A stretch of DNA of 64,000 nucleotides. Origin: Syntrophaceae bacterium UBA5744. GTDB taxonomy: Bacteria; Desulfobacterota; Syntrophia; Syntrophales; UBA2192. Location of the stretch: contig DIFQ01000001.1 in the NCBI GenBank assembly GCA_002419215.1, positions 53,143 through 117,142 of the forward strand, read 5' to 3'. This document shows, piece after piece, positions 581-60,390 of the stretch; the stretch's first letter is position 1; the number at the start of each line of letters is the position of its first letter. The notes beneath the pieces were generated by a model. The model had not been told where the DNA came from, made no database searches, and saw only the letters and a program-made list of their open reading frames with translations. A program made the translations under genes and the position numbers.

Positions 581-625
581 CACTTTCTTCCGAACCCGAT
601 ACCCGATACCCTATACCCGATACCC
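581..625 (-). repeat. G3-heptad array A1 (5 x GGGNNNN plus purine tail) abutting the asd stop codon
   Basis: CCC tracts on the + strand at 595, 602, 609, 616 and 623, an exact 7-nt period. The minus strand reads TAA-GGGTATCGGGTATAGGGTATCGGGTATCGGGTTCGGAAGAAAG. Confidence 0.9.
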
Positions 626-1645
626 TTATTTGAGATAGTCCTTTGCCAGGATCTCAGCGATCTGGACCGCGTTGAGGGCCGCCCCTTTGCGCAGGTTGTC
701 CGAGACAACCCACAGGTTGATCCCGTTTGCAATTGACTCGTCCTCCCGGATCCTGCCCACGTAGGTGGCATCCTGACCGGCGGCGGTTACGGCCAGGGGG
801 TACTCTTTTTTCGACGGCTCGTCGATGACGATGACACCGGGGGCTTTTTTGAGCAGCGCCTTCACCTCGGCCGCCGTGATTTTCTTTTCCGTCTCGATGT
901 TGACCGACTCGGAGTGGCAGCGCAGCACGGGCACACGGACCGTCGTTGCCGTTACGCCGATGGACTCGTCGCCGAAGATTTTCTGGGTCTCCCAGACCAT
1001 CTTCATCTCTTCTTTCGTGTAACCGTTCTCGAGAAAGATATCGATCTGGGGAAGGCAGTTGAAAGCGATCTGGTACGGGTAGACCTTGGCCACGGGCTCC
1101 TTGAAGCTGAGCAGGGCCCGGGTCTGGTCGATGAGCTCTTCCATCGCCTTCTTGCCGGTCCCCGAGACGGACTGGTACGTCGACACGACGATCCGTTTGA
1201 TGCGGGCCGCGTCATGGATCGGTTTCAACGCGACGACCATCTGGATCGTGGAGCAGTTCGGGTTTGCAATGATCCCGCGCTTCTTGTAGCCGGCGATTTT
1301 CTCCGGGTTCACCTCGGGCACGACGAGCGGGATGTCCGGCTCGTACCGGAAGGCGGCCGTGTTGTCGATGACCACGCATCCCGCCTTCGCGGCGATGGGG
1401 GCAAACTTCTGGCTGATGCTTCCCCCGGCCGAGAAGAGCCCGATCTCGATCCCCCCGAAGGAATCCTCCTTGAGCACCTGGACGGGATAGGACTTGCCCT
1501 TGAACTCCAGCTCCTTTCCCAGGGAACGCTCCGAGGCAAGCAGGGTCAGCTCGCCCACGGGGAAGTTGCGTTCCTCGAGAATGCTGAGCATCTCGTTTCC
1601 GACGGCGCCGGTGGCGCCGACGACGGCTACACGATACGTTCTCAT
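626..1645 (-). CDS. asd: aspartate-semialdehyde dehydrogenase
   Basis: 339 aa. N-terminal VAVVGATGAVG Rossmann loop and IANPNCSTI active-site Cys motif. Confidence 0.92.
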   Translation of the reverse strand: MRTYRVAVVGATGAVGNEMLSILEERNFPVGELTLLASERSLGKELEFKGKSYPVQVLKEDSFGGIEIGLFSAGGSISQKFAPIAAKAGCVVIDNTAAFRYEPDIPLVVPEVNPEKIAGYKKRGIIANPNCSTIQMVVALKPIHDAARIKRIVVSTYQSVSGTGKKAMEELIDQTRALLSFKEPVAKVYPYQIAFNCLPQIDIFLENGYTKEEMKMVWETQKIFGDESIGVTATTVRVPVLRCHSESVNIETEKKITAAEVKALLKKAPGVIVIDEPSKKEYPLAVTAAGQDATYVGRIREDESIANGINLWVVSDNLRKGAALNAVQIAEILAKDYLK

Positions 1646-4246: not shown

Positions 4247-4323
4247 ATCCCCAACGATGAACGCCCTGTCGGACCTGCCGATGAAGCCTTATGGCAGGGC
4301 TGACGTTCTATGATGACGAACCA

Positions 4324-4423
4324 GGGAAGCACGGAAGAGCAGAAGAGCGGAATGAAAATATTTTCCCCGATCCTGTTCTGTTGTTCTGATCCGCTCTTCT
4401 TAACTCCCGATCTTCCGATCTTC
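4324..4423. repeat. GGAAG-octamer palindromic element B1
   Basis: Left arm GGGAAGCACGGAAGAGCAGAAGAGCGGA. Right arm TCCGCTCTTCT...CTTCCGATCTTC. Perfect 11-bp core pairing of AGAAGAGCGGA (4341-4351) with TCCGCTCTTCT (4390-4400), plus CGGAAG/CTTCCG. Confidence 0.85.
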
Positions 4424-4488
4424 ATGGTTTCGAAGCTCAAACCGTCGAATGCGGAGTGGAGACGGTTACCCTCCCGCCAGGCAGCGCA

Positions 4489-11238: not shown

Positions 11239-11372
11239 AGAATTCTCCTTTCCTGTTTGTTTCCTCCACCCCTTCACCTTGCCGGGGAACTTTTCTCGCG
11301 AAAAGCAACAGGCCCGGCAATCCGAGGGTGTGAGAGATAGAACGGGTTTAGTTAGCACAAAGCGTTATATTT

Positions 11373-11426
11373 GGCAAATAAAAATTTAATCCCCCTGCCC
11401 CCTTTCGTGCAAGAGGGAGCCGGGGG
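11373..11426 (-). terminator. probable intrinsic terminator after argJ and array A2
   Basis: Imperfect 15-bp GC stem (CCCCCGGCTCCCTCT / AAAGGGGGCAGGGGG) followed by ATTAAATTTTTATTT on the minus strand. Confidence 0.5.
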
Positions 11427-11430
11427 ATCC

Positions 11431-11472
11431 TTTTCTTCCCCGATACCCTATACCCGAGACCCGATACCCGGT
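11431..11472 (-). repeat. G3-heptad array A2, 3 nt after the argJ stop
   Basis: The minus strand reads TGA-ACC-GGGTATCGGGTCTCGGGTATAGGGTATCGGGGAAGAAAAGG. C-tracts on the + strand at 11439, 11446, 11453, 11460 and 11467. Confidence 0.9.
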
Positions 11473-12669
11473 TCAGGTCGTGTAATGCGCGTTGATCTTG
11501 ACGTAATCGACGGTCAGATCCGAGCTGTAGACCCGGAAGCCCTTCGTGCCCTGCCCGAGTTTCACCAGGACCTTGATCTGTTCCTTCTTCATCACCTCGG
11601 CAAGCTCCTGCAGGTGGCTCGTAATCCCCCGGCCTTGCTTGAACAGCGGAAGCCCGTCGAAGTAGAGCTCCACGGCATCGCCGTTTATGGGCACGCCTGC
11701 CGCGCCAACGGCCGAAATCACCCGGCCCCAGTTCGGGTCCCCGCCGTAAAAGGCTGTCTTGACGAGGTTCGACCGGGCGATCTGGTAGGCAACGGCTTTT
11801 GCCTCCCCCGTCGTCTTCGCCCCCTCGATGACGATCTCGATGAGTTTCGTCGCACCTTCCCCGTCGCGGACGATGGATTTGGCGAGTTCCGTCATCACTT
11901 CGGTGAGCATCCCCGCAAAAACGGCAAAATCCCTTGTCGACGTTCGAATCTTGCGATTTCCGGCAAGGCCGTTTGCCAGGATCAGGACCGTGTCGTTCGT
12001 GCTCATGCACCCGTCGACGCTGATGGCATTGAAACTCTGGTCGACCGCCTCCCGAAGCGCCCTCTTCATGGCCTGGTCGTCGATGTCGGCGTCCGTCAGG
12101 ACGAAGGACAGCAGGGTCGCCATGCCGGGCTCGATCATACCCGCCCCCTTGGCAATCCCGCAGACACAGATGTCGCTTCCGCCGACAGGCCCCTCCCGGA
12201 ACTGGATCTTCGGGTAGCGGTCCGTCGTCATGATCGCCTGCGCCGCTTCGGGGATTCCATCGGGGGAGAGCCCCTTGACGAGCCGGCTCACGCTGCCGGC
12301 CACCTTGTCGATGGGCAGCTTGCGGCCGATGACGCCCGTCGAGGCCACGAGGACCTGGGATTCGTCGATCTGCAGCGCTCCGGCGCAGAAGCGCGCCATT
12401 TTCACGGCATCCTGATAGCCCTCGTCCCCGGTGGCCGCGTTGGCATTGCCGCTGTTGATGATGACGGCCCGCGATGTGCCGCTCTTGATGCGCTCGAGGT
12501 CGAGCAGCACCGGCGCCGCCTTGAAGACGTTCGTCGTGAAGACGCCTGCCGCCTTCGCGGGCGCCTCGGAATACAGGAGCGCCAAGTCCTTCCTGCCGTC
12601 CTCCTTGATCCCCGACGCGATCCCCGCGGCCTGAAACCCGGGAACCTCGAATTTTCCGTTTTCCGCCAT
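11473..12669 (-). CDS. argJ: bifunctional glutamate N-acetyltransferase / amino-acid acetyltransferase
   Basis: 398 aa with the ATLLSFVLTDA autoprocessing site. Confidence 0.9.
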   Translation of the reverse strand: MAENGKFEVPGFQAAGIASGIKEDGRKDLALLYSEAPAKAAGVFTTNVFKAAPVLLDLERIKSGTSRAVIINSGNANAATGDEGYQDAVKMARFCAGALQIDESQVLVASTGVIGRKLPIDKVAGSVSRLVKGLSPDGIPEAAQAIMTTDRYPKIQFREGPVGGSDICVCGIAKGAGMIEPGMATLLSFVLTDADIDDQAMKRALREAVDQSFNAISVDGCMSTNDTVLILANGLAGNRKIRTSTRDFAVFAGMLTEVMTELAKSIVRDGEGATKLIEIVIEGAKTTGEAKAVAYQIARSNLVKTAFYGGDPNWGRVISAVGAAGVPINGDAVELYFDGLPLFKQGRGITSHLQELAEVMKKEQIKVLVKLGQGTKGFRVYSSDLTVDYVKINAHYTT

Positions 12670-18658: not shown

Positions 18659-18708
18659 CTTCCTTCTCTTTTATCTCTTTCTGAACCCTGTACCCTGGAC
18701 CCTGTCCC
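18659..18708 (-). repeat. G3-heptad array A4 plus purine tract, immediately upstream of the pycB-like start
   Basis: The minus strand reads GGGACAGGGTCCAGGGTACAGGGTTCAGAAAGAGATAAAAGAGAAGGAAG-ATG. Confidence 0.85.
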
Positions 18709-18731: not shown

Positions 18732-18777
18732 CCCCCTCACCCCAGCCGTCTCCCGCGGGGGGAGAGGGAGATGAAGG
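18732..18777. repeat. CCCTCACC...TCTCCC-loop-GGGAGA hairpin element D1
   Basis: CCCCCTCACCCCAGCCGTCTCCCGCGGGGGGAGAGGGAGATGAAGG. 6-bp stem TCTCCC/GGGAGA with a 5-nt loop. Similar to the copy at 27554-27602. Confidence 0.75.
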
Positions 18778-22547: not shown

Positions 22548-23032
22548 TCAAGGCAGGAGTTCTCACTCTCAGCGACAAGGGGTCCCGCGGCGAACGCGAG
22601 GACCTGAGCGGCCCGGAAGTGATCCGGATCCTGAAGGAAATCGGCATCGAGACCGAACGCTGCGAGATCGTCCCCGACGAGGCGGAGATCATCTCCCGGA
22701 AGCTCATCGAGTTCGTCGACGAGCGCAAACTGGATCTCGTCGTCACGACGGGCGGGACGGGCGTGAGTCCCCGCGATGTGACCCCGGAGGCCACCCTGAA
22801 GGTCGTCGACCGGGAGATCCCCGGCATGGCCGAAGCGATGCGCCGCGAAAGCATGCTGAAGACGCCCCACGCCATGATCTCGCGCGCCGTCGCGGGCATC
22901 CGCAAAACAACCCTCATCGTCAACCTTCCCGGCAGCCCCAGGGGAGTGCGGGAGAATCTCGCCGTGATCCTGCCGGCGTTGAAACACGCCATCGAGAAGA
23001 TCAAGGGGGACCCAGCCGACTGCGGAAGTTAG
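22544..23032 (+). CDS. mogA: molybdenum cofactor biosynthesis protein MogA/MoaB family
   Basis: LTLSDKGSRGERED...VVTTGGTGVSPRDVTPEA...INLPGSP. TTG start overlaps the EF-G2 stop (TTGA). Confidence 0.8.
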   Translation: MIKAGVLTLSDKGSRGEREDLSGPEVIRILKEIGIETERCEIVPDEAEIISRKLIEFVDERKLDLVVTTGGTGVSPRDVTPEATLKVVDREIPGMAEAMRRESMLKTPHAMISRAVAGIRKTTLIVNLPGSPRGVRENLAVILPALKHAIEKIKGDPADCGS

Positions 23033-23110
23033 GAAGATAGGAAGTCAGGAAGCTCGGAAAAAGCGTCTTTGTCCTATCCGATCTTCCGCTCTTCCTCACT
23101 TCCTACCTTC
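23024..23110. repeat. GGAAG-octamer palindromic element B2
   Basis: GGAAGTTA GGAAGATA GGAAGTCA GGAAGCTC ... CCGATCTTCCGCTCTTCCTCACTTCCTACCTTC. Overlaps the mogA stop. Sits between convergent genes. Confidence 0.85.
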
Positions 23111-25378: not shown

Positions 25379-27406
<2,028 letters not shown>

Positions 27407-27505
27407 GTGTCTCGTGTTATGCGTTATGGCCGTTCGTCTTGAGCCTTTTGCCTTTTGTCGTTCGATTTTCTCCTTTTAACCTTTAACCTTTTTCCTTTTG
27501 CCTGG
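27407..27505 (+). repeat. pyrimidine-rich heptad array C1 (GCCTTTT-type) after ligA
   Basis: About 13 consecutive 7-nt units: TGTTATG CGTTATG ... GCCTTTT GCCTTTT GTCGTTC GATTTTC TCCTTTT AACCTTT AACCTTT TTCCTTT TGCC. Confidence 0.7.
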
Positions 27506-36314: not shown

Positions 36315-37192
36315 TGGACCTGCTCCTTCACCTCTGCGTCGTTATCGCCATCTACGCCATCTTCGCGCTGAGCCTGAATGTCGAGGTGGGCTACACGGGG
36401 CTCTTCAACTTCGGTCACGTGGCTTTCTTCGGCATCGGCGCCTACACGTCGGCGCTGCTGACGCTTGCGGGCATCCCGTTTATCTGGAGCCTTCCGGCGG
36501 CCCTGTTCATGGCAGGCCTGTGCGGGTTTCTCCTCAGCATCCCGGCCCTCAAGCTCCAGGGCGACTACTTCGGGATCGCGACACTGGGCTTCGGGGAGAT
36601 CCTCCGGATGATCGTCAACAATGAAGTCTGGCTCACCAAGGGACCCATGGGGCTTCCCGGGATCCCGAGGCCCGAGTTGTTCGGTATCGTCTTCGACAGC
36701 CTGCCCCGGTACCTGGTCCTCTCGTCGGGCTTTGCCCTGTTAACCTTTTCCATCCTGGCGTTCGTCGTCCTCAGCCCGTTCGGCAGGGCCCTGAAGGCCG
36801 TGCGGGACGACGAAACGGCGGCGGAGATCCTCGGCAAGAACGCCTACCGCTTCAAGATCAAGTCCTTCGCGATCGGATCCGTCTTTGCGGGTCTCGCGGG
36901 CGTGCTCTGGGCCCACTACACGACCTTCATCGGCCCCGGTGATTTCACGCTGACCGAGACGATCCTCGTGCTGCTCATCGTGGTCATGGGCGGAAAGGGC
37001 ACCTTCCTGGGCCCCGTGGCGGGGGCCGTGGTTCTCATCGTATTCCAGGAGTCGGTCCGTTTTCTGCGGCTCCCGCCCGAGTGGACACGACTGCTGGGTC
37101 CTCTGCAGCAGATGATCTTCGGGCTGCTGCTCGTCGTCCTCATGGTCTTTCGCCCCGAGGGGATCATCCGCGAAAAAGGGGCAAAGCGATGA
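36314..37192 (+). CDS. livM: branched-chain amino acid ABC transporter permease (LivM-type)
   Basis: Starts at the ATG at 36314, overlapping the livH stop (TGATG). GYTGLFNFGHVAFFGIGAY motif. Confidence 0.85.
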   Translation: MDLLLHLCVVIAIYAIFALSLNVEVGYTGLFNFGHVAFFGIGAYTSALLTLAGIPFIWSLPAALFMAGLCGFLLSIPALKLQGDYFGIATLGFGEILRMIVNNEVWLTKGPMGLPGIPRPELFGIVFDSLPRYLVLSSGFALLTFSILAFVVLSPFGRALKAVRDDETAAEILGKNAYRFKIKSFAIGSVFAGLAGVLWAHYTTFIGPGDFTLTETILVLLIVVMGGKGTFLGPVAGAVVLIVFQESVRFLRLPPEWTRLLGPLQQMIFGLLLVVLMVFRPEGIIREKGAKR

Positions 37193-37938
37193 TCGAGATC
37201 CGAAACGTGACGAAGGCCTTCGGCGGCACGCGCGCCGTCTCCGACTGCTCGATCAGCCTCGACGGCCTCGCGATCTCCGGACTCATCGGGCCCAACGGCA
37301 GCGGCAAGACAACCCTCTTCAACCTCATCACGGGTCTCCTCAAACCCGACAGCGGGGAAATCCGTTTCCTGGGAAACCGGATCGACGGCCGCCTGCCCCA
37401 TGAGATGGCGGCCCTGGGCCTCATCCGCACCTTTCAGCTCTCTCGTGTCTTCCCCCGGATGACGGTGCTGGATAACATGCTGCTCGCCCCCCAGGACCAG
37501 ACGGGGGAGAGCTTCCTTTCCCTGTGGACCCGCCTGCCGCGAATCCGGAAGGAGGAATCGGAAAACCGGGAACGGGCCGTCGAACTTCTCGATCTGCTGG
37601 GTCTCACCCGGCTCCACGACCAGTTCGCCGAGAACCTCTCCTACGGGCAGCAGAAGCTCCTGGAGCTGGGCCGGGCCCTCATGGCGAAACCGAAGATGAT
37701 TCTCCTGGACGAGCCCACGGCGGGGATCAACCCCACTCTCATCCGGACAATGATCGAGATGATCCTCGCGATGAGGGAGCGCGGCCAGACGTTTTTCATC
37801 ATCGAACACAACATGGACGTGGTCATCGAGGTCTGCGAGAAGGTCTTCGTCCTCGACCACGGCGAGAAGATCGCCGAGGGACGGCCGGAGGAAATCCAGA
37901 AAGACCCCCGCGTGATCGAGGCCTACCTGGGACTATGA
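37189..37938 (+). CDS. livG: ABC transporter ATP-binding protein (LivG-type)
   Basis: Walker A GPNGSGKTT, signature LSYGQQK, Walker B ILLDEP. ATGA overlap with livM. Confidence 0.9.
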   Translation: MIEIRNVTKAFGGTRAVSDCSISLDGLAISGLIGPNGSGKTTLFNLITGLLKPDSGEIRFLGNRIDGRLPHEMAALGLIRTFQLSRVFPRMTVLDNMLLAPQDQTGESFLSLWTRLPRIRKEESENRERAVELLDLLGLTRLHDQFAENLSYGQQKLLELGRALMAKPKMILLDEPTAGINPTLIRTMIEMILAMRERGQTFFIIEHNMDVVIEVCEKVFVLDHGEKIAEGRPEEIQKDPRVIEAYLGL

Positions 37939-38642
37939 GACTCGAAGCGAAAGACATCTACGCAGGCTACGGCAAGATCGAGGTCCTGCATGGCGCATCC
38001 ATCCGTGCGGCCGAGCGAGAGATCATCTGCATCATCGGCCCCAACGGCTCGGGGAAGTCCACCCTGCTGAAAGCGGTCTTCGGCCTCCTGAAGCCGACGA
38101 AGGGCACGGTGAGCTTCGACGGGAAGGACATCACGCGGCTCGAACCCGAGCAGAAGGTTCGCCTCGGGATCGCTTTCATCCCCCAGGGCCGGAACGTGTT
38201 CCCGTCTCTCACGGTCCGTGAGAACCTCGAGATGGGCGGCACGGTCCTCGGCGATGCAAAAGCCGTACAGCTGGCGATCGAGGAAGCCCTCGATTCGTAC
38301 CCCCTGCTGAGCCGGAAAATCCGGGACCGGGCGGGAAACCTCTCGGGGGGCGAAAAGCAGATCCTCTCCCTGGCGCGGGCTGACATGGTGAAGCCCGGCC
38401 TTATCCTCATGGACGAGCCCTCCATCGGTCTCTCCCCGAGAATGATCGACGAGGTCTACTCGAAGATCACGGAGATCAACCGCCGGGGCACCACCTTTGC
38501 CATCGTCGAGCAGAACGCCCGGAAGGCCCTCTCGATCGCCCATCGGGGCTACGTGCTGGACCTGGGGCAGACGCGCCTGGAGGACACGGGGGCGGAACTT
38601 CTGAACAACGAGGAAGTCAAGAAACTCTACCTCGGCGGCTGA
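37935..38642 (+). CDS. livF: ABC transporter ATP-binding protein (LivF-type)
   Basis: Walker A GPNGSGKST, signature LSGGEKQ, Walker B ILMDEP. ATGA overlap with livG. Confidence 0.9.
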   Translation: MRLEAKDIYAGYGKIEVLHGASIRAAEREIICIIGPNGSGKSTLLKAVFGLLKPTKGTVSFDGKDITRLEPEQKVRLGIAFIPQGRNVFPSLTVRENLEMGGTVLGDAKAVQLAIEEALDSYPLLSRKIRDRAGNLSGGEKQILSLARADMVKPGLILMDEPSIGLSPRMIDEVYSKITEINRRGTTFAIVEQNARKALSIAHRGYVLDLGQTRLEDTGAELLNNEEVKKLYLGG

Positions 38643-38680
38643 CGCCGCCGGGCATCGGGCATCCGGCTTCAGGCACCCGG
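38643..38680 (+). repeat. degenerate heptad array (GGGCATC type) just after the livF stop
   Basis: TGA-CGCCGCC-GGGCATCGGGCATCCGGCTTCAGGCACCCGG. G-runs occur about every 7 nt, but only two are full G3 tracts. Confidence 0.4.
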
Positions 38681-38752: not shown

Positions 38753-38819
38753 TGGCCATTGCGAACGTAAATCAATCATCCGCATGAACATCGACTGAAC
38801 GCATCGCTCTCTCTTCTCC

Positions 38820-38865
38820 AGACGAAACAGACCAAATAGACAAGACCAGATAGACCCAACAGACC
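38820..38865 (+). repeat. AGAC(C) short-period array in the hemerythrin gene leader
   Basis: AGACGAAAC AGACCAAAT AGACA AGACC AGAT AGACCCAAC AGACC. Six AGAC words, mostly 9 nt apart, lying 20-65 nt upstream of the ATG. Confidence 0.7.
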
Positions 38866-38885
38866 ATTCTACGGGAGGATCGAGC

Positions 38886-39449
38886 ATGAAACCCATCGGA
38901 CCTTTGATGTGGGAGCATCGGCTGATCGAGCAGATGGTGGCTCTGCTGCGCGGGGAAATCGACCGCATCACGAGCAAAAATACGGTCAATGTGATCCTTG
39001 TCGAGCAGGCCGTCGATTTCTTCCGGACCTACGCCGACCGGACCCACCACGGCAAGGAAGAGGAGATCCTGTTCCGCGACCTGGCGCAGAAAACAATGTC
39101 TCCGGAACACAGGAACATCATGGATGAGCTGGTGAGGGAGCACACTCACGGCAGGGAGCTGGTGCGCAAGCTCGTCGAGGCGAAGGATCTCTATGTGAAC
39201 GGCTATGCCGAAACCCTGCCGCACATTGCGAGGGAGCTCAAGGCGCTTGTCGATTTCTACCCGGGACACATCGAGAAGGAAGACAAGCGGTTCTTCTTCC
39301 CCTGTCTCGGTTATTTCACGCGGGCCGAGCAGGATCGCATGCTCGAGGAGTTCCACTCCTTCGACCGGAACATGATCCACGAGAAGTACCGCACGGTGGT
39401 GGAGAATTTCCTCGGGAAAAAAGTGTTGAGGCCGGCCCAATCCGCCTGA
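38886..39449 (+). CDS. hemerythrin-like cation-binding domain protein
   Basis: MWEHRLIE...HHGKEEEILF...H..E pattern of hemerythrin HHE domains. GGGAGG ribosome-binding site. Confidence 0.6.
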   Translation: MKPIGPLMWEHRLIEQMVALLRGEIDRITSKNTVNVILVEQAVDFFRTYADRTHHGKEEEILFRDLAQKTMSPEHRNIMDELVREHTHGRELVRKLVEAKDLYVNGYAETLPHIARELKALVDFYPGHIEKEDKRFFFPCLGYFTRAEQDRMLEEFHSFDRNMIHEKYRTVVENFLGKKVLRPAQSA

Positions 39450-39496: not shown

Positions 39497-39605
39497 GGAA
39501 TGCGCTGACGAAGTTCGGAAGTGATGAAGAGCGGAAGATCGGAAACTGATTCTTCCATCCCTATGGATCCGCTCTTCCTAACTTCTGCTCTTCCGCTCTT
39601 CCCGA
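39497..39605. repeat. GGAAG-octamer palindromic element B3
   Basis: GAAGTTCG GAAGTGAT GAAGAGCG GAAGATCG GAAACTGA ... GGATCCGCTCTTCCTAACTTCTGCTCTTCCGCTCTTCCCGAACC. Sits between convergent genes. Confidence 0.85.
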
Positions 39606-43560: not shown

Positions 43561-45357
43561 ATGAAAAACATCCGCAACTTCAGCATCATCGCCCACATCG
43601 ACCACGGCAAGTCGACCCTTGCCGATCGGCTCATCCAGCACACGGGCATGGTCGAGGATCGCAATTTCCGGGACCAGATCCTGGACAACATGGACATCGA
43701 GCGAGAGCGGGGGATCACCATCAAGAGCCAGGCCATCACCCTTCCCTACCGCGCAAAGAACGGACAGGACTACATTCTCAACCTCATCGACACGCCGGGA
43801 CACGTGGACTTCACTTATGAGGTCTCCCGTTCGCTTGCATCCTGCGAGGGGGTCCTCCTTCTCATCGACGCCTCCCAGGGCGTGCAGGCCCAGACGATCG
43901 CCAACCTGTACCTGGCCATGGAGAACAACCTGGCGATCATCCCCGTCGTCAACAAGATCGACCTTCTGACGGCGGATGTGGACCGGGTCCTTGAACAGAT
44001 CGACGCCGAACTGGGGCTCGACCCCTTCAGCCACATCAAGTGCTCGGCCAAGCAGGGGATCGGCATCGAGGATGTTCTAGAAGCCATCGTGGAACGGATC
44101 CCTCCCCCGAAGGGCGACGCCGCAAAGGCCCTGTCCGCCCTCATCTTCGATGCCAAATACGACTCCTTCCGGGGAACCGTCATCCACTGCCGGGTCTTCG
44201 ACGGAGAGGTCAAGCCGGGCGACATCATCCGCTTCATGTCCAGCGGCAGCACCTACAAGGTGGAGGAAGTGGGTTGTTTCGGCATCGCTCGATTGCGGAA
44301 GGACACCCTTGCGGCGGGAGATGTGGGCTACATCATCGCCGGTGTCAAGACCGTCGCCGATGTGCACATCGGCGACACGATCACCCACGACAATCGGCCT
44401 GCGGACCAGGCGCTCCCCGGGTTCAAGGAGATCAAGCCCGTCGTCTTCTCGTCGATCTACCCCATCTCCTCGGAGGACTACGAGGACCTCGCGGTCTCGC
44501 TGGAGAAGTACAAGCTCAACGACGCCGCCCTCGTGTACCAGAAGGACTCCTCCGTCGCCCTCGGGCTGGGTTTCCGCTGCGGTTTCCTGGGGCTGCTGCA
44601 CCTGGAGATCGTCCAGGAGCGCCTTGAAAGGGAGTTCGACCAGTCCATTATCCTCTCCGTGCCCAGCGTTCGCTACCGCTTCACCCTGAAGGACGGCAGC
44701 GTCGTCCAGGTGGACAACCCGTCCAACTACCCGGACCCCTCTTCGATCGAGAAGGCCGAGGAGCCCTTCATCCGGGCCACCATGATCATGCCCGAGAAAT
44801 ACCTCGGCGCCGTCATGAAGCTCTGCACGGAGAAGCGCGGCGCCAACTCGACGATGAACTACCTGAGCCCCGGCCGCGTGGAGCTCATCTACGAGATGCC
44901 GCTTGCCGAGGTCCTCTTCGATTTCTACGACCGATTCAAGACGGTGACCCAGGGCTACGGCTCCTTCGACTACGACATCATCGACTACCGGGAGGGCAAA
45001 CTCGTGCTGCTGGACATCCTCGTCAACGGCGAGAAGGTGGATGCCCTCTCCCAGATCGTCCACCGCGACAACGCCCGCCAGCGTGGCGTTCACGCCTGCG
45101 ACAAGCTCAAGGACGAGATCCCGCGCCAGCAGTTCAAGATCGCCATCCAGGGTGCGATCGGGGGCGAGATCATCTCCCGTTCCACGATCAGCCCCTTCCG
45201 CAAGGACGTGACGGCCAAGTGCTACGGTGGCGACATCACGCGCAAGCGAAAGCTTTTGGAGAAGCAGAAAAAGGGCAAGAAGCGGATGAAGATGGTGGGC
45301 ACCGTGAGCATCCCCCAGAGTGCCTTCCTGGCCGTCCTGCAGTCGGACAATGACTGA
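43561..45357 (+). CDS. lepA: translation elongation factor 4
   Basis: NFSIIAHIDHGKSTL, 598 aa, LepA-specific C-terminal domain. Confidence 0.95.
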   Translation: MKNIRNFSIIAHIDHGKSTLADRLIQHTGMVEDRNFRDQILDNMDIERERGITIKSQAITLPYRAKNGQDYILNLIDTPGHVDFTYEVSRSLASCEGVLLLIDASQGVQAQTIANLYLAMENNLAIIPVVNKIDLLTADVDRVLEQIDAELGLDPFSHIKCSAKQGIGIEDVLEAIVERIPPPKGDAAKALSALIFDAKYDSFRGTVIHCRVFDGEVKPGDIIRFMSSGSTYKVEEVGCFGIARLRKDTLAAGDVGYIIAGVKTVADVHIGDTITHDNRPADQALPGFKEIKPVVFSSIYPISSEDYEDLAVSLEKYKLNDAALVYQKDSSVALGLGFRCGFLGLLHLEIVQERLEREFDQSIILSVPSVRYRFTLKDGSVVQVDNPSNYPDPSSIEKAEEPFIRATMIMPEKYLGAVMKLCTEKRGANSTMNYLSPGRVELIYEMPLAEVLFDFYDRFKTVTQGYGSFDYDIIDYREGKLVLLDILVNGEKVDALSQIVHRDNARQRGVHACDKLKDEIPRQQFKIAIQGAIGGEIISRSTISPFRKDVTAKCYGGDITRKRKLLEKQKKGKKRMKMVGTVSIPQSAFLAVLQSDND

Positions 45358-45446
45358 AAGGAAGGAAGTCAGGAAGATCGGAAGCGCAGAAGATCAGACG
45401 AATAAATACTCCATCCACTCCGCTCTTCCGATGTTCCGCTCTTCCC
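45358..45446. repeat. GGAAG-octamer palindromic element B4
   Basis: GGAAGTCA GGAAGATC GGAAGCGC AGAAGATC ... CTCCGCTCTTCCGATGTTCCGCTCTTCCC. Sits between lepA and hemW. Confidence 0.85.
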
Positions 45447-46997: not shown

Positions 46998-48518
46998 TTG
47001 ATCGGGATTGGGTCCATGGTTTTCACGCCCCGCGACAAACTGATCCTGTCCGCCATCGTCGCCCTCTTTGCCTTTCGGCTTCTCACGATCCACGCGATTC
47101 AACTCTCCCCCGACGAAGCGTATTACTGGAACTGGGGCCAGCACCCCTCGCTTGCCTACTCCGACCACCCGCCCATGGTGGCCTGGGTGATGGCATTCTT
47201 CACGGCGCTGGGCGGCAACTCGGAGTTGTTCGTCCGCCTGGGCGGCTTTCTTCTCTCGGCTGCGGCTCTTTTCTTTCTCTTTGCCGCCGCGCGGACCCTT
47301 TTTCCCGACCGCAGGGACCTTTCCTGGGACATTCTTCTCGCATTCAACGTGACGTTGCTCTTTCCCGCAGGATGCATCATCCAGACGCCGGACACGCCCA
47401 TGCTCTTCTTCTGGGCGGCCGCCGCCTGGTGCGGAAGCCGGATCGTGTCGGGCGGGCCCGGTTGGTGGTGGTACATCTGGGGCGCGGCCCTGGGCCTGGG
47501 TCTTCTCAGCAAGTACACCATGATCCTTCTGGTTCCGTGCACCTTCGGGTTTCTTCTCTTCTGCCCTCCGCTGCGACACTGGCTTGCCCGGAAAGAACCC
47601 TGGCTCGGTCTTCTGATCGCATTCGCCCTCTTCTCGCCCGTCCTCTACTGGAACTCCCAGCACGAGTGGCTCTCTTTCACGTATCAACTCCGTCAGGGAT
47701 TCTCGCCGAAGCAGAAGGCCGTACCCCTGAAACTCCTGGAATATCTCGGCGGACAGGCCGGTGTCATCACCCCGATTCTCTTTGTCGCTTTCACCGGTTA
47801 CAGTGTGAAGGCGTTGCGCATCATCCGGCGGGAATCGAACCCTTCCTATCTCTACCTGCTTTTCCTGTCATGGCCTGTTTTGATATTCTTCGGCTTCTCC
47901 ACGGCCATGGGGAAGGTGGCCGAGGCAAACTGGCCCGCCCCGGCCTACATCGCCGGATTCATCCTCGCAGGCGCCGTTTACCATGACGTTTATGCGGCCA
48001 GGCCTGCTCACCGGCGCTTCATCGCCGCAGGTCTCGTCGTCGGTCTCCTCTTGAGTCTCGTCGTCCAGGTGCACCTGCTGAAGCCCTTTCTTCCCATCCC
48101 CCCCGCGTCCGACCAGACTCGGCAGTTCCACGGCTGGCGGCAGCTCGGCGGGCAGGTTTCCGGCATCGTCGATCAGCGGCCGACCGATCGAGGCTACTTC
48201 CTGGTGTCGGACAAGGGAACCACGGCGGCCGAATCCGTTTTCTACAGCGGGGCACGGCTGACGGGCGTCGACCTCTTCCAGCCCGAGCGATACGTCTTCC
48301 TGGGGGAGCTGTCCGGCCTGAGGGGAAAGGATGCCGTCCTGGTGCTTCATGGCGCAAGCGAGGCAGGCCTGAAGCGATATGAGGGGGTTTTCGACTCGAT
48401 CGAACCTGCCGGCTCCCACGACTGCCTTTTCCGGGGCGTCAAGATAGACGGCCTCAGCGTGCATCTCTTCATCGGGAGGGGTTTCCGGGGAAGCTGGACC
48501 GCCGCGGGCGGCAAGTAG
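46998..48518 (+). CDS. glycosyltransferase family 39 (ArnT/PMT-like) membrane protein
   Basis: PDEAYYWNWG...SDHPPMVAW motif near the N-terminus. About 11 TM segments and a C-terminal soluble domain. Confidence 0.75.
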   Translation: MIGIGSMVFTPRDKLILSAIVALFAFRLLTIHAIQLSPDEAYYWNWGQHPSLAYSDHPPMVAWVMAFFTALGGNSELFVRLGGFLLSAAALFFLFAAARTLFPDRRDLSWDILLAFNVTLLFPAGCIIQTPDTPMLFFWAAAAWCGSRIVSGGPGWWWYIWGAALGLGLLSKYTMILLVPCTFGFLLFCPPLRHWLARKEPWLGLLIAFALFSPVLYWNSQHEWLSFTYQLRQGFSPKQKAVPLKLLEYLGGQAGVITPILFVAFTGYSVKALRIIRRESNPSYLYLLFLSWPVLIFFGFSTAMGKVAEANWPAPAYIAGFILAGAVYHDVYAARPAHRRFIAAGLVVGLLLSLVVQVHLLKPFLPIPPASDQTRQFHGWRQLGGQVSGIVDQRPTDRGYFLVSDKGTTAAESVFYSGARLTGVDLFQPERYVFLGELSGLRGKDAVLVLHGASEAGLKRYEGVFDSIEPAGSHDCLFRGVKIDGLSVHLFIGRGFRGSWTAAGGK

Positions 48519-48620
48519 CCGCCCTGCGGCAGTGACCAGTGTCCAGTGAAAACAAGGAAATCGACAGCTTTCTTCACAAGCCACAAACCACTAGCCACTT
48601 CTTTCACTGCCGCGAAGCGG
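48519..48620. repeat. intergenic long hairpin built from GTG/CAC heptads, flush with two convergent stop codons
   Basis: Outer stem GCGGCAGTGA (48526-48535) pairs with TCACTGCCGC (48604-48613), plus 4 more outer bp. The interior holds CCAGTGT CCAGTGA and AGCCACA AACCACT AGCCACT heptads, about 9 of 12 complementary. Confidence 0.75.
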
Positions 48621-49100
48621 CTACTTGCGTGCCTTGAATGTCCAGGCGTGGTTGATGAGGTAGTTCATCACGGCTGTAATGCCGATCGCGAGGAAATTGG
48701 CCAGCAGGTAGTACATATATCGCTTCAGAAAATTCGTGAAAACGAACTGGAGAGCAATGGCGAGCCAGCAGGCCGCACAATACTGCATGAACTGGACGGC
48801 GATGGACTTGCTGATGAGGGCTTTCCGGTCCCCCCAGGTCCAGGCCCTGTTCCAGATGAAGTTGTGCAGAGTGGCGAAAAAAATAGCCGTGGCGAGTGAC
48901 AGGTTGAATCTCAAACCGCCGGAATCGATCCCGGGATACACAAATTCCTGGGCAATATAAAGAACGGCCAGATTGACGAGAGTCCCTGAAAATCCAACGG
49001 CACCGAATTTTGCGAAGCGCTGCTTTACCAGCCACTCCCCGCCGGGCAGCCGGGATACGGCGTCCTTGACGGTCTGCTTGAACCGCAACAAGCCGCTCAT
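48621..49100 (-). CDS. GtrA family membrane protein
   Basis: 159 aa, four TM segments. FAKFGAVGFSGTLVNL and HNFIWNRAWTW motifs. Confidence 0.75.
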   Translation of the reverse strand: MSGLLRFKQTVKDAVSRLPGGEWLVKQRFAKFGAVGFSGTLVNLAVLYIAQEFVYPGIDSGGLRFNLSLATAIFFATLHNFIWNRAWTWGDRKALISKSIAVQFMQYCAACWLAIALQFVFTNFLKRYMYYLLANFLAIGITAVMNYLINHAWTFKARK

Positions 49101-57998: not shown

Positions 57999-59396
57999 AT
58001 GAACCGAATGTACCTGCTGCTTTTCGGCCTCGCAATCGCTCTTGCGGGGACCGCGCTCTGGGCCTTTAACACGGTCCTCGAGTTCGAAAAACCCGCCATT
58101 GACCTGAAGGAGGATCTCTCCACGATCGGCCAGGGCAGATTCATTGCGCTGAGCGTCTCCGATCAGAAGAGCGGGATCCGGAGTGTCTCCGCCACGATCA
58201 GCCAGGACGGCAAGGACCACGTTGTTCTGTCTGAAAACTACCCCGGGGGTACGAGGGAACAGGCGCTGAGCCCCGAGCTGAACCTGCGCGGGCTCCATCT
58301 CAAAGACGGCCCGGCGACGATCACCATCACGGCCGAGGATCATTCGTGGCTGAAGAACCGGACAACGCTCGCCGTGGAGACGTCCATCGACACCGTGCCG
58401 CCGCAGATCGGCCTGATCAGTTCGGCTCACAACGTCAATGCCGGAGGCACCGGTGTCGCCCTGTACCGGGTTTCGGAAGAAGTGACCCGAACGGGCATCC
58501 GTGTGGGGGATCGCTTCTTCCAGGGCTACCCTTACGCCATCCAGGCCAAACCGTGCCACATCGCCTATTTCGCCATCCCGGTCTCGGCCTCCAAAGGGGG
58601 ACTCAAGATCCTGATCACGGCACGGGACAAGGCGGGAAACGAATCGTCCGTGATTCTTCCCCATCTCGTGAGAGAAAAGAAATTCAAAGATGACAAGATC
58701 ACTCTGAGCCGCGCGTTCCTGGAACAGAAAATGCCGGAGTTCAGGCAGCATGATTCCCGGGTCCCTGCCACGCCTCTGGAAGCCTTCCTGTTCGTCAACG
58801 AGACGTTGCGCGTCGAGAACGCCAGGACGATCCAGGCAGCCGGCAGCAAGACCCAGCCGAAGGCGCTCTGGGAGGGCACGTTCCTGCGCATGAAGAACGC
58901 GGCACCCATGGCCGGCTTCGCCCAGGAAAGGACCTATCTCTTCGAGGGGATGGCCGTGAGCAAGAGCACCCACCTGGGTGTGGACCTCGCCTCGACGGAG
59001 CGAGCCCCCATCGAGTCGGCAAACAGCGGCGTGGTGGTTCATGCCGGATACCTGGGGATCTACGGCAACACCGTCATTGTGGATCACGGCCTGGGCCTTT
59101 CCAGCCTTTACGCGCATCTGTCGGATATCAGCGTGAAAATCGGACAGAACGTGGCCAGGGGAGAAACACTGGGCTCAAGCGGCAGCACGGGCCTTGCAGG
59201 CGGCGACCACCTGCACTTCAGCATCCTCGTCGGAGGCGAGTTCGTGAACCCCACGGAGTGGTGGGACGCCCACTGGATCCGGGACAACGTGACGGGCAAG
59301 CTGACCGAGACGGCATCGCAGGAAGCCCCCGCAACCCAGAAGGCACAGCCGGCAAAGGCCAAGGCGAAGGGGAAAAAGAAAAAGGCCAGGGGTTAA
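57999..59396 (+). CDS. M23 family metallopeptidase with N-terminal TM and Lys/Ala-rich tail
   Basis: HLGVDLA (HxxxD) and GSSGSTGLAGGDHLHFSI (HxH). C-terminal AKAKAKGKKKKARG. Confidence 0.8.
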   Translation: MNRMYLLLFGLAIALAGTALWAFNTVLEFEKPAIDLKEDLSTIGQGRFIALSVSDQKSGIRSVSATISQDGKDHVVLSENYPGGTREQALSPELNLRGLHLKDGPATITITAEDHSWLKNRTTLAVETSIDTVPPQIGLISSAHNVNAGGTGVALYRVSEEVTRTGIRVGDRFFQGYPYAIQAKPCHIAYFAIPVSASKGGLKILITARDKAGNESSVILPHLVREKKFKDDKITLSRAFLEQKMPEFRQHDSRVPATPLEAFLFVNETLRVENARTIQAAGSKTQPKALWEGTFLRMKNAAPMAGFAQERTYLFEGMAVSKSTHLGVDLASTERAPIESANSGVVVHAGYLGIYGNTVIVDHGLGLSSLYAHLSDISVKIGQNVARGETLGSSGSTGLAGGDHLHFSILVGGEFVNPTEWWDAHWIRDNVTGKLTETASQEAPATQKAQPAKAKAKGKKKKARG

Positions 59397-59420
59397 GGGT
59401 ATCGGGTAAGGAAAAGAAGC
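59397..59420 (+). repeat. truncated G3-heptad copy A5 abutting the M23 peptidase stop
   Basis: The + strand reads TAA-GGGTATCGGGTAAGGAAAAGAAG, with the same unit and purine tail as A1-A3. Confidence 0.7.
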
Positions 59421-59433
59421 GTCTCATATGAAG

Positions 59434-59480
59434 AAAACCCCCTGTCAGCAGTGCTGCAGGGGGTTTGTTATTCTTTTTTC
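59434..59480. terminator. bidirectional terminator between the convergent M23 and rapZ genes
   Basis: CCCCCTG(T)CAGC-AGT-GCTGCAGGGGG stem, flanked by AAGAAAA on the left and TTTGTTATTCTTTTTT on the right. Confidence 0.75.
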
Positions 59481-59526
59481 ATTTTCTCTTTTACCCTAGA
59501 CCCGATCCCCGAGACCCGATACCCTA
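59471..59526 (-). repeat. G3-heptad array A3 overlapping the rapZ stop codon
   Basis: The minus strand reads TAGGGTATCGGGTCTCGGGGATCGGGTCTAGGGTAAAAGAGAAAATG. C-tracts on the + strand at 59494, 59501, 59508, 59515 and 59522. Confidence 0.9.
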
Positions 59527-60390
59527 TGATCGGTGTATGTCGCGATGCGTTGCGTTGACCAGGTAATTTTCGCCGGAGAAGTACAGGGCCAGTCGGTTGG
59601 CCATGACGACGGAACGGTGCTTGCCGCCTGTGCAGCCCAGTGCCACGTTGAGGCTCGACTTTCCCTCCTTCTCGTAGAGAGGGATCAGGAATTCCATCAT
59701 GTTCAGCAACTGCTCCAGGAAGGTCCTGCTCTCCTCCCACCCCATGACATATTCCTGGATTTTTTCGTCTTGCCCGTTGAGGTGCTTCAATTCTTCGATG
59801 AAGTAGGGATTGGGCAGGAAACGCACGTCCAGCACGATGTCCGCTTCGGGAGGAAGCCCGTAGCGGTAACCGAACGACATCAGGTTGATCACGAGGCGCT
59901 TTTCGGTCGTCGACGTCATGAAATGTCTCTGGACGACTTCCTTGAGCTGGTGGACATTGAACGAGGAGGTGTCGACCACCTTGTCCGCCATCGCACGCAG
60001 GGCCGAGAGTCTCTCCCGCTCCAGCGAAATCCCCTCCATCACGGTCCCCCGCTCACAGAGCGGGTGCGCCCGCCTCGTCTCGCTGAACCTTCGAAGCAGA
60101 GACTCGTCGCTGGCGTCCAGAAAGAGGATCTCGATCCGGTGCCCCTCCTCCTTGAGTCTGGCGAAGATCTCCGCATACTTCTCCAGGAAGTACCGTTCCC
60201 GCAGATCCATGACGAGGGCAACCTTGCTGATTTCGCTGGCAGCGTCGGTCTGGATCTCGAGAAGTTTCGGAAGAAGGACGACGGGAAGGTTGTCGACGCA
60301 GAAGAAACCCACGTCCTCAAGCGCCCGAAGGGCCGTGCTCTTGCCGGAGCCGGACATGCCGGTGACGATGATGACTCTGAGGTTCTGCAT
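59524..60390 (-). CDS. rapZ: RNase adapter protein RapZ
   Basis: [31 protein letters not shown]. 288 aa. Located in the rpoN cluster. Confidence 0.9.

Follow-up and report, generated by a model that had tools for sequence, protein, structure and literature searches.

Arrays of G-rich heptads stand directly behind stop codons, on the sense strand, in a 64,000-nt stretch of the genome of Syntrophaceae bacterium UBA5744 (GenBank assembly GCA_002419215.1, contig DIFQ01000001.1, positions 53,143 to 117,142), here called the window. Judged by their sequences, these arrays belong to a known class of G-rich heptamer repeats, the GGGNATC-type heptamers of Rehm, Wurmthaler, Li, Frickey and Hartig (2015, PLoS One; PMC4692102), of which they form a lineage-specific Syntrophales family. 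The family has a GGGT[A/C]T[C/A] unit, usually repeated to give five G-tracts, and a purine-rich tail of about 8 nt; its arrays stand alone or make up the 5′ arm of a palindrome of convergent G- and C-arrays. Distinctive to the Syntrophales subtype are the mixed T[A/C]T[C/A] loops, the mode of five tracts, the purine tail and the near-exclusive sense orientation of solo copies. A reading in which the arrays act as G-quadruplexes (G4s) at the 3′ ends of genes is a plausible candidate.

Array 1 (595–625, minus strand) reads GGGTATC GGGTATA GGGTATC GGGTATC GGG, five G3 tracts at an exact 7-nt period, and begins at the base after the TAA (626–628) of asd (626–1645, minus strand, identified by NCBIfam), with zero spacing. 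It lies in the 90-nt asd–rsmD intercistronic region, is followed by the purine-rich tail TTCGGAAGAAAG (583–594), and was found, 100% identical each time, in this locus in five independent metagenome contigs or assemblies. Array 2 (11438–11469, minus strand; GGGTATC GGGTCTC GGGTATA GGGTATC GGGG, then AAGAAAAGGA) is separated by 3 nt (ACC) from the TGA (11473–11475) of argJ (11473–12669, NCBIfam). In array 3 (59494–59524, minus strand; GGGTATC GGGTCTC GGGGATC GGGTCTA GGG), the first G is itself the last base of the TAG (59524–59526) of rapZ (59524–60390, NCBIfam), and an A-rich purine tail follows at 59465–59493. Array 4 (18686–18708, minus strand; GGGACA GGGTCCA GGGTACA GGG) is degenerate; it sits 80 nt past a biotin-carboxylase stop and 27 nt ahead of the ATG of a pyruvate-carboxylase-B-like (pycB-like) gene, whose ribosome-binding site is included in the array's purine tail (18659–18685). 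The short array 5 (59397–59406, plus strand; GGGTATCGGG, tail TAAGGAAAAGAAG) converges on array 3 from directly 3′ of the TAA (59394–59396) of an M23 peptidase gene, with a further GGGG inside the end of the open reading frame (ORF) at 59389–59392. All five of these copies are followed by a purine-rich tail, and a regular-expression scan of both window strands gave no further comparable array beyond them and the marginal copy described below. NCBIfam bears out the gene identities given for these five sites.

Reading of the minus strand upheld what the initial annotation had said of the asd, argJ, rapZ and pycB-like sites: their coordinates, the zero or short spacing from the stop, the exact 7-nt period at asd, G-richness on the sense strand of the gene that is followed, a purine tract after the array, and agreement of the four full copies with the G3N1–7 quadruplex rule. 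Its proposal of short plus-strand copies holds for the one behind the M23 TAA. The other, GGGCATC GGGCATC at 38650–38663 (plus strand), 7 nt after the TGA (38640–38642) of an ORF that this annotation alone labelled livF, has just two tracts; it is marginal and by itself too short to tell from chance. The ORF just upstream of the putative livF, at 37081–37938, matches LivG-type ABC ATPases. Beyond the window, the same genome holds a sixth full copy of five tracts, 2 nt past a relA/spoT TAA (L115:20274–20304), with a degenerate complementary partner 27 nt downstream (L115:20274–20348), and a three-tract copy, GGGACTAGGGCACAGGG (L243:6292–6308), which overlaps the TAG of a 670-aa gene about 3 kb past the window end. 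Arrays 1–4 and the relA copy have the canonical G4 motif (≥4 G3 tracts, loops of 1–7 nt), and the M23 and livF-labelled copies fall short of four tracts. Behind the L243:6292 array come AAGAAG and then four CCGACAG heptads (to 6340), so that a G-array passes into a C-rich heptad array on the sense strand.

The placement rule extends far outside the window. In metagenomes, a scan for GGGTATCGGGTCTMGGGTMTMGGG returned 115 stretches, reduced to 104 non-redundant arrays. Gene boundaries were taken from a composition-scored caller whose 3′ ends have 94% precision and 77% sensitivity against pipeline calls. Array starts within 15 nt after a stop comprise 35 on the sense strand and 2 on the antisense strand (P = 1e-8); the 66 solo arrays account for 26 of the former and none of the latter. 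The initial annotation had proposed just such a stop-abutting, strand-locked placement and had named equally common antisense copies among the outcomes that would overturn it; that outcome was not seen in this set. The stop-to-array distance is −6 to +9 nt in 33 of 48 cases, with short linkers rich in A (such as AACA, AGAA or ACA). The unit logo over the 104 copies is G G G T (0.94) A/C (0.48/0.43) T (0.98) C/A (0.75/0.21), and positions 4–11 past the last GGG are 68–91% purine. Across the source genome and its nearest relatives, the stops with an array behind them are those of argJ, asd, relA, rapZ and the M23 peptidase gene, and arrays also stand ahead of the starts of pycB-like and LysE-family genes; the sense orientation holds throughout but for a single exception, which has three tracts.

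Several more specific rules were tried and rejected. There is no stop-codon preference (TAG 13, TAA 13 and TGA 9, against a background of 130/130/177) and no fixed spacing to the downstream start, the distances ranging from 1 to more than 1,000 nt. Readthrough into a conserved extension was likewise discarded: in-frame continuations of 4, 10 or many codons share nothing. Separately, at loci L131, L155, L186, L195, L196 and L200 the C-rich strand of an array lies 3–13 nt before an ATG on the opposite strand, at the expected position of a ribosome-binding site, which suggests mis-called starts or unusual translation initiation.

Both the number and the length of the arrays depart from chance. 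In the window, GGGTATCGGGTNTNGGG with up to 2 mismatches has 9 overlapping matches against 0.2 expected, and exact-period arrays of at least four tracts number 3 against 0.1 expected in first-order Markov simulations. Since such counts exceed chance and those of the generic quadruplex motif (given below) do not, what is enriched is a specific repeat family and not G4 motifs generally. A tract-number census in 250 kb chosen by synteny alone gave 13 arrays of three tracts (9.9 expected), 2 of four (0.5), 7 of five (0) and 1 of six. Five is thus the peak tract number, unlike a decaying microsatellite distribution, and it is also the mode of the metagenome set.

Orthologous sites show how the arrays change. 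The nearest homologues of the source's Asd and RapZ carry Syntrophales or Syntrophaceae MAG labels. Synteny of the asd region is intact in relatives of 93, 90, 84 and 82% Asd identity. At the argJ site, the 93% relative keeps five G-tracts while the loops TATC/TCTC/TATA/TATC have become TTCA/TAA/TCAC/TAGCA, some with changed lengths; the 90% relative has three tracts, and the 84% and 82% relatives have none. The array at the relA site is unique to the source among the relatives compared. The composite between rapZ and the M23 gene is kept in relatives of 92% and 91% RapZ identity, with seven and six tracts on the rapZ side and TACA or mixed loops; the 87% relative retains the M23 arm only, with five tracts, and the 86% relative is without either arm. 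In a three-species alignment of the rapZ site, 15 of 15 G positions are invariant, whereas of the 12 loop positions just 3 are (P = 5e-5). Between orthologous metagenome loci the difference is one of whole units (4 versus 5 tracts, 5 versus 8), a unit-number polymorphism that shows slippage. Taken together, these comparisons show slippage-type dynamics under a constraint that preserves the G-tracts and a length of about five, with a limit to array persistence at roughly 8–10% protein divergence.

Two observations on coding sequence belong to the rapZ site. In three relatives (L239:11020–11056, L240:11031–11066 and L241:10981–11012) the M23 ORF runs into the G-array, so that the repeat encodes the C-terminal tail of the peptidase (...KKKGSRVKGSGSRG*), and the first G-tract after rapZ falls within the rapZ coding end; the M23 arm has five tracts in these relatives. 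Since ORFs run into them, arrays can define or shift stop codons. At the asd site, a complementary CCTTT arm follows the array in the relatives L120 and L121, where CCTTTNN/AAAGGNN heptads akin to the window's GCCTTTT-like heptamer (27443–27503) fill the asd–rsmD spacer.

The initial annotation knew of no described bacterial element with such a placement, a statement contradicted by Rehm et al. (PMC4692102); four-heptad elements had also been annotated by Aklujkar et al. 2009 (PMC2700814). Rehm et al. described GGGAATC in Xanthomonas and GGGGA(C/T)T in Nostoc, preferentially in runs of four units, at about 185 copies per genome, 89–93% of them intergenic, with a mean of 28 nt to the 5′-neighbouring ORF and with 70–75 convergent plus/minus pairs in Xanthomonas. 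Repeats downstream of an ORF lie mostly 0–50 nt past the coding-strand stop, including all stop-overlapping repeats, and the 5′ end of the G-strand adjoins an ORF irrespective of ORF orientation. In that work (GGGAATC)3GGG DNA formed a K+-dependent G4 with a T1/2 of 50 °C that was lost on G-to-T mutation, DNA G4 and i-motif folding was shown for analogues, the neighbouring genes were without common function, and no function could be assigned to the repeats. The Syntrophales arrays have all sequence-level defining features of this class. Five window copies are tandem GGGNNTN repeats of at least two units that include the consensus unit, and GGGTATC, a G3 with a 4-nt loop, fits GGGNATC. The arrays are intergenic, near a 5′ ORF and mostly 0–50 nt after a coding-strand stop; their lengths favour at least four tracts and do not decay monotonically; convergent pairs are frequent, the window pair being 59397–59406 (plus strand) with 59494–59524 (minus strand); and length and sequence vary between close relatives at the same locus. 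They differ from the repeats of Rehm et al. in their Syntrophales (Desulfobacterota) host, in T[A/C]T[C/A] loops with mixed units, in a tract mode of five and not four, in the purine-rich tail and, for many copies, in a conserved 45-nt spacer. In Syntrophales nearly every solo copy has the sense orientation, whereas Xanthomonas arrays between co-oriented genes lie 30–35% on each strand. Circular dichroism folding data are published for GGGAATC, whereas for GGGTATC folding is predicted by an energy model (−8.4 kcal/mol).

Other repeat classes share some of these traits. Gmet_H4, four tandem GGGACCG heptads at 49 sites in Geobacter metallireducens, proposed as regulatory RNA elements (PMC2700814), likewise forms multicopy four-heptad arrays starting with GGG, in a related deltaproteobacterial lineage, but its unit is GC-rich without T, it also occurs inside genes and no stop-codon rule was reported for it. 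Like REP, REPIN and BIME elements, the arrays are short, high-copy extragenic repeats at gene 3′ ends, single or as inverted doublets. In the account given by PMC12306157, a REP closer than 16 nt to a stop causes ribosomes to stall, leads to cleavage and reduces translation (Liang, Rudd and Deutscher 2015), and classical REPs stabilise upstream cistrons; REPs also switch between G4, hairpin and duplex (Kaplan et al. 2016, PMC5100583). The arrays resemble REPs in lying in the 3′ UTR (untranslated region), in a potential competition between G4 and hairpin, and in a position, ≤15 nt from the stop, at which REP structure stalls ribosomes. REPs are palindromic, carry GTAG on the 5′ side and are moved by a RAYT/TnpA-REP transposase; solo heptad arrays, by contrast, are non-palindromic, lack GTAG, vary by whole units and have no transposase known. 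Membership of the REPs fails because a solo array is a direct repeat, not an imperfect palindrome of about 20–40 nt per unit, and because no GTAG was found at array 5′ ends. No RAYT/TnpA-REP transposase was seen in 83 kb of source sequence, in which no search aimed at RAYT was made.

Heptanucleotide repeats of the STRR type are in some cases G/C-rich, usually form longer arrays and belong to a different lineage; to our knowledge, abutment of stop codons is not documented for them. Mycobacterial interspersed repetitive units (MIRU; Supply et al. 1997) are reportedly intercistronic tandem repeats, oriented with the operon, that overlap the upstream stop codon. Unlike the arrays, their units are 46–101 bp long and contain small ORFs that couple translation, and they are not G-tract arrays. 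The likeness to cyanobacterial STRR of Calothrix and Nostoc (cited by Rehm et al., PMC4692102) is that of tandem heptamers dispersed between genes.

The format itself is widespread. A cross-phylum scan for GGGTATCGGGTNTNGGGTNTNGGG, with one genome per species, returned at least 114 stretches, and the matches listed span many phyla, among them Planctomycetota, Bacteroidota, Acidobacteriota, Chloroflexota, Cyanobacteria and Nitrospirota as well as Syntrophales and others. Within 15 nt of a gene boundary, the matches listed include 20 sense and 4 antisense arrays after a stop, and 9 antisense and 0 sense arrays before a start. These counts are the pattern of Rehm et al., in which the 5′ end of the G-strand adjoins a gene.

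A second layer of organisation is palindromic. A complementary C-array lies within 200 nt downstream of 35 of the 104 metagenome arrays and upstream of 3 (P = 7e-8), so that paired elements are always G-first on both strands. By this logic each of two convergent genes has a G-array after its own stop, and the second preferred position of Rehm et al., before a start on the antisense strand, follows as well. In the window, the composite between the convergent rapZ and M23 genes runs in the order G-array, purine tract, GC-rich hairpin with T-runs on both strands, pyrimidine tract and C-array. Its central GC-rich hairpin (CCCCCTGCAGCACTGCTGACAGGGGG, 59438–59463, T-rich runs on both strands) is the centre of a 133-nt palindrome with arrays 3 and 5 as its outer arms, and the spacer folds as one palindrome with a minimum free energy of −54.3 kcal/mol (z = −5.8, 0 of 200 shuffles). 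A different composite, absent from the window, accounts for about 21 of the 104 metagenome copies, which share a conserved spacer of about 45 nt (AAGGAAGCAGATTTCGTTTATAAAAATCTT..TACCTTCAGACC) between G- and C-arms. Observed as a dispersed element of about 100 nt (G-heptad array, conserved 45-nt spacer with an AGATTT...AAATCT inner stem, C-heptad array) at L128, L139, L142, L145, L147, L155, L167, L188, L190, L193, L197, L202, L209, L222, L233 and other loci, this unit could be REPIN- or MITE-like.

The arrays are almost certainly transcribed, as the start of a 3′ UTR or as intercistronic RNA, since sites 2 and 3/5 precede a probable terminator hairpin and sites 1 and 4 lie between co-oriented genes. 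Downstream of array 2, a GC-rich hairpin with a T-rich run (11372–11428, minus strand; CCCCCGGCTCCCTC...GGGGGCAGGGGG; RNA fold z = −2.3) is the probable intrinsic terminator of argJ, and array 2 would therefore be transcribed within the argJ 3′ UTR. The hairpin at 59438–59463 is a probable bidirectional terminator. Neither was flagged by a consensus terminator scan, the T-run of the former beginning 6 nt past the stem and the stem of the latter being bulged. Arrays 2, 3 and 5 lie between a stop codon and a GC hairpin with a T-run, and the arrays themselves have neither a GC hairpin nor a U-run and so are not intrinsic terminators. A general association with such terminators was considered for the metagenome copies and rejected on the counts given below. 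Covariance models of Rfam have no match at gathering thresholds in the whole window.

ViennaRNA assigns the G4 an energy of −8.4 kcal/mol, compared with −4.8 to −9.8 kcal/mol for canonical hairpins of the array alone, and predicts the G4 as the optimum for 3 of 4 arrays in isolation. The account that we prefer, tentatively and as something short of probable, is a structural role in the stop-proximal 3′ UTR. The RNA would fold as a three-tetrad G4, or as a long hairpin instead when a complementary arm is present. A ribosome with its A site on the stop codon holds 12–15 nt of downstream mRNA. An array 0–9 nt past the stop would fall inside the mRNA held by the terminating ribosome, which would melt the first tract while the four remaining tracts refold at the mouth of the mRNA channel; that tracts 2–5 could still form a G4 with the first engulfed would give a reason for the number five. 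The upstream gene might then be terminated more slowly or less stably, by analogy with Escherichia coli REPs ≤15 nt from the stop, and after ribosome release a compact 3′ structure could shield the upstream cistron from 3′-to-5′ decay. On this account the arrays would be generic structural punctuation, not a gene-specific regulator, renewed by unit slippage. Speaking for it are the sense-strand placement behind stops, the retention of G-tracts while loops drift, the peak at five tracts, the K+-dependent folding of (GGGAATC)3GGG DNA, the precedent of stop-proximal REPs and the position of arrays 2, 3 and 5 ahead of a hairpin with a T-run.

A number of observations weigh against this structural 3′-UTR account. 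Some concern folding: with flanks included, the optimum contains the G4 at site 4 only and is a canonical fold at sites 1, 2 and 3/5; self-pairing of GGUAUC in array 1 reaches −9.8 kcal/mol, against −8.4 for the G4; and in the 35 of 104 arrays that are paired, a hairpin of about −54 to −60 kcal/mol would beat the G4 if the whole spacer is transcribed. The generic quadruplex motif (G3N1–7)×3G3 shows no excess in the window (7 versus 7.15 expected), and the M23 copy, the argJ copy of relative L121 and the L243:6292 copy have just three tracts. Others concern position: about 8 of the 104 metagenome arrays adjoin a start codon, at 3–13 nt, on the antisense strand, and terminator-like hairpins are not enriched downstream of the metagenome copies (13 of 87 versus 10 of 87 controls). 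The arrays also turn over fast between close relatives. At the asd site, L121 and L123 have AGGNNNN heptads and L120 a looser AAGG-type array, all without G3 tracts; arrays are absent at the argJ, asd and relA sites in relatives of 82–84% Asd identity and on the rapZ side in relatives of 86–87% RapZ identity. Such losses in the 82–87% relatives, with a relA copy confined to the source, mean that any benefit is weak or generic.

The same turnover is what would be expected of selfish or neutral repeats, arising by 7-nt slippage, by REP- or MITE-like spread or by both, that persist where they are least harmful, close outside ORFs and on the strand that leaves RNA polymerase and ribosome binding unobstructed, and have no function of their own. 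We regard this as unlikely, if far from negligible. Unit-number polymorphism between close relatives, host genes that are unrelated housekeeping genes, the over-representation of heptamer repeats in many bacteria (introduction of PMC4692102) and the copies sharing a conserved spacer, like a dispersed element, all speak for it, and other 7–8-nt tandem families in the spacers of the same genome (GGAAGNNN, GCCTTTT and CCGACAG) point to a general mutational source. A distribution that peaks at five and is nearly empty at four, however, is not a slippage equilibrium, imperfect arrays mixing TATC, TCTC, TCTA and TATA damp slippage, and the G positions are invariant while the loops drift. Tolerance alone also leaves unexplained why arrays should lie 0–9 nt from the stop within spacers of 90–130 nt, and why antisense arrays are nearly absent after stops. 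If instead the palindrome is the functional unit, as a bidirectional terminator or mRNA stabiliser in the intergenic space, solo arrays would be half-sites that have lost the partner arm. The downstream bias of C-array partners, the single palindrome of the rapZ–M23 spacer, the degenerate partner of the relA copy, the pairing of the purine tail with the pyrimidine tract in composites, the like architecture of the window's GGAAGNNN octamer family and the convergent pairs of Xanthomonas (PMC4692102) are in keeping with this, but two thirds of the arrays are solo and these obey the strongest stop rule. Moreover, canonical structure in the site 1 spacer falls short of significance (z = −1.8), the arms are not strictly complementary (GGGTACA versus TGGACCC in L239), and a hairpin model predicts neither invariant GGG with free loops nor an optimum of five tracts; we consider this explanation improbable.

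Action at the level of DNA or during transcription, through a non-template-strand R-loop or G4 that forms past the stop after the ribosome's departure and pauses RNA polymerase before it reaches the terminator or marks gene ends for replication or repair, strikes us as very unlikely. The strand rule can be read just as well as a rule for the non-template strand, DNA G4 and i-motif folding is on record for the analogues, and the ORF-orientation-independent abutment of Rehm et al. fits a DNA polarity, as do the cross-phylum counts of 20, 9 and 0 among the matches listed; against this stand the lack of terminator association and the minor size of the before-start antisense class in the Syntrophales subtype (8 versus 35), and sequence cannot distinguish DNA from RNA folding. 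Scarcely likely at all is a periodic binding site, in which a multimeric protein reads GGGT every 7 nt, much as TRAP and HutP recognise spaced triplets, and the purine tail offers a second contact, for example to Hfq or CsrA. The conserved positions are indeed GGG with T4 and T6, spacing in the source is strictly 7 nt and the tail is rich in ARN and GGA. Yet no candidate protein is linked to the arrays, the 3–5-nt loops of the 93% relative break the periodicity while the G-tracts are kept, and no single specific protein is likely because the class spans many phyla with differing loops.

Should the structural 3′-UTR account hold, quadruplex-prone repeats would be generic gene-end punctuation and the arrays a natural bacterial system for the biology of RNA quadruplexes, with useful properties: a positional rule (0–9 nt past the stop, sense), a five-tract optimum and many natural variants. 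A bolder extension, which we rate as distinctly improbable, is a stop-codon cap found across phyla, an RNA quadruplex inside the footprint of the terminating ribosome that would tune termination, ribosome recycling and 3′ decay of the upstream cistron according to K+ or RNA helicase activity. If true, uncultured anaerobes and other organisms would have a further level of post-transcriptional control, general in reach and encoded physically. With the present results the GGGNATC class takes in Syntrophales and, by way of the cross-phylum scan, many phyla, and the question of function is sharpened. Its nearly pure sense-strand solo copies make the Syntrophales subtype the cleanest form of the class and hence a good test bed. 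In practical terms, the arrays mark true 3′ gene ends and their strand, can mislead ORF callers, some ORFs running into arrays, and are likely hotspots of assembly and length polymorphism in metagenome bins.

Further repeats occupy other spacers of the window. Octamers of GGAAGNNN in tandem, followed by the complement NNNCTTCC, form long spacer hairpins at 4320–4425, 23022–23110, 39513–39603 and 45358–45445; several start right past stops, such as the TGA of the gene at 43561–45357 (plus strand), and they are purine-first on both strands, like the paired G-heptad elements. Behind the gene at 25379–27406 (plus strand), a GCCTTTT-like heptamer is repeated about 8.6 times (27443–27503), and there the sense strand is pyrimidine-rich. 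The whole spacer at 48519–48620, between the convergent genes at 46998–48518 (plus strand) and 48621–49100 (minus strand), is one palindrome of −33.6 kcal/mol; the ends of the two genes share a TAGCCGC(N4)GCGGCAGTGA motif, and the spacer contains CAGTGAC and CACAAGC heptads. Just upstream of the gene at 38886–39449 (plus strand), which has no NCBIfam match, AGACCAAATAGACA-like repeats of 9/14 nt span 38819–38866. Finally, a CTCCCTCTCCCC...GGGGTGAGGGGG hairpin lies at 18735–18775, between the biotin-carboxylase stop and array 4, and a near-identical copy follows an integrase-family gene in the same genome (L243:4190–4235); the hairpin is probably one more dispersed palindromic element.

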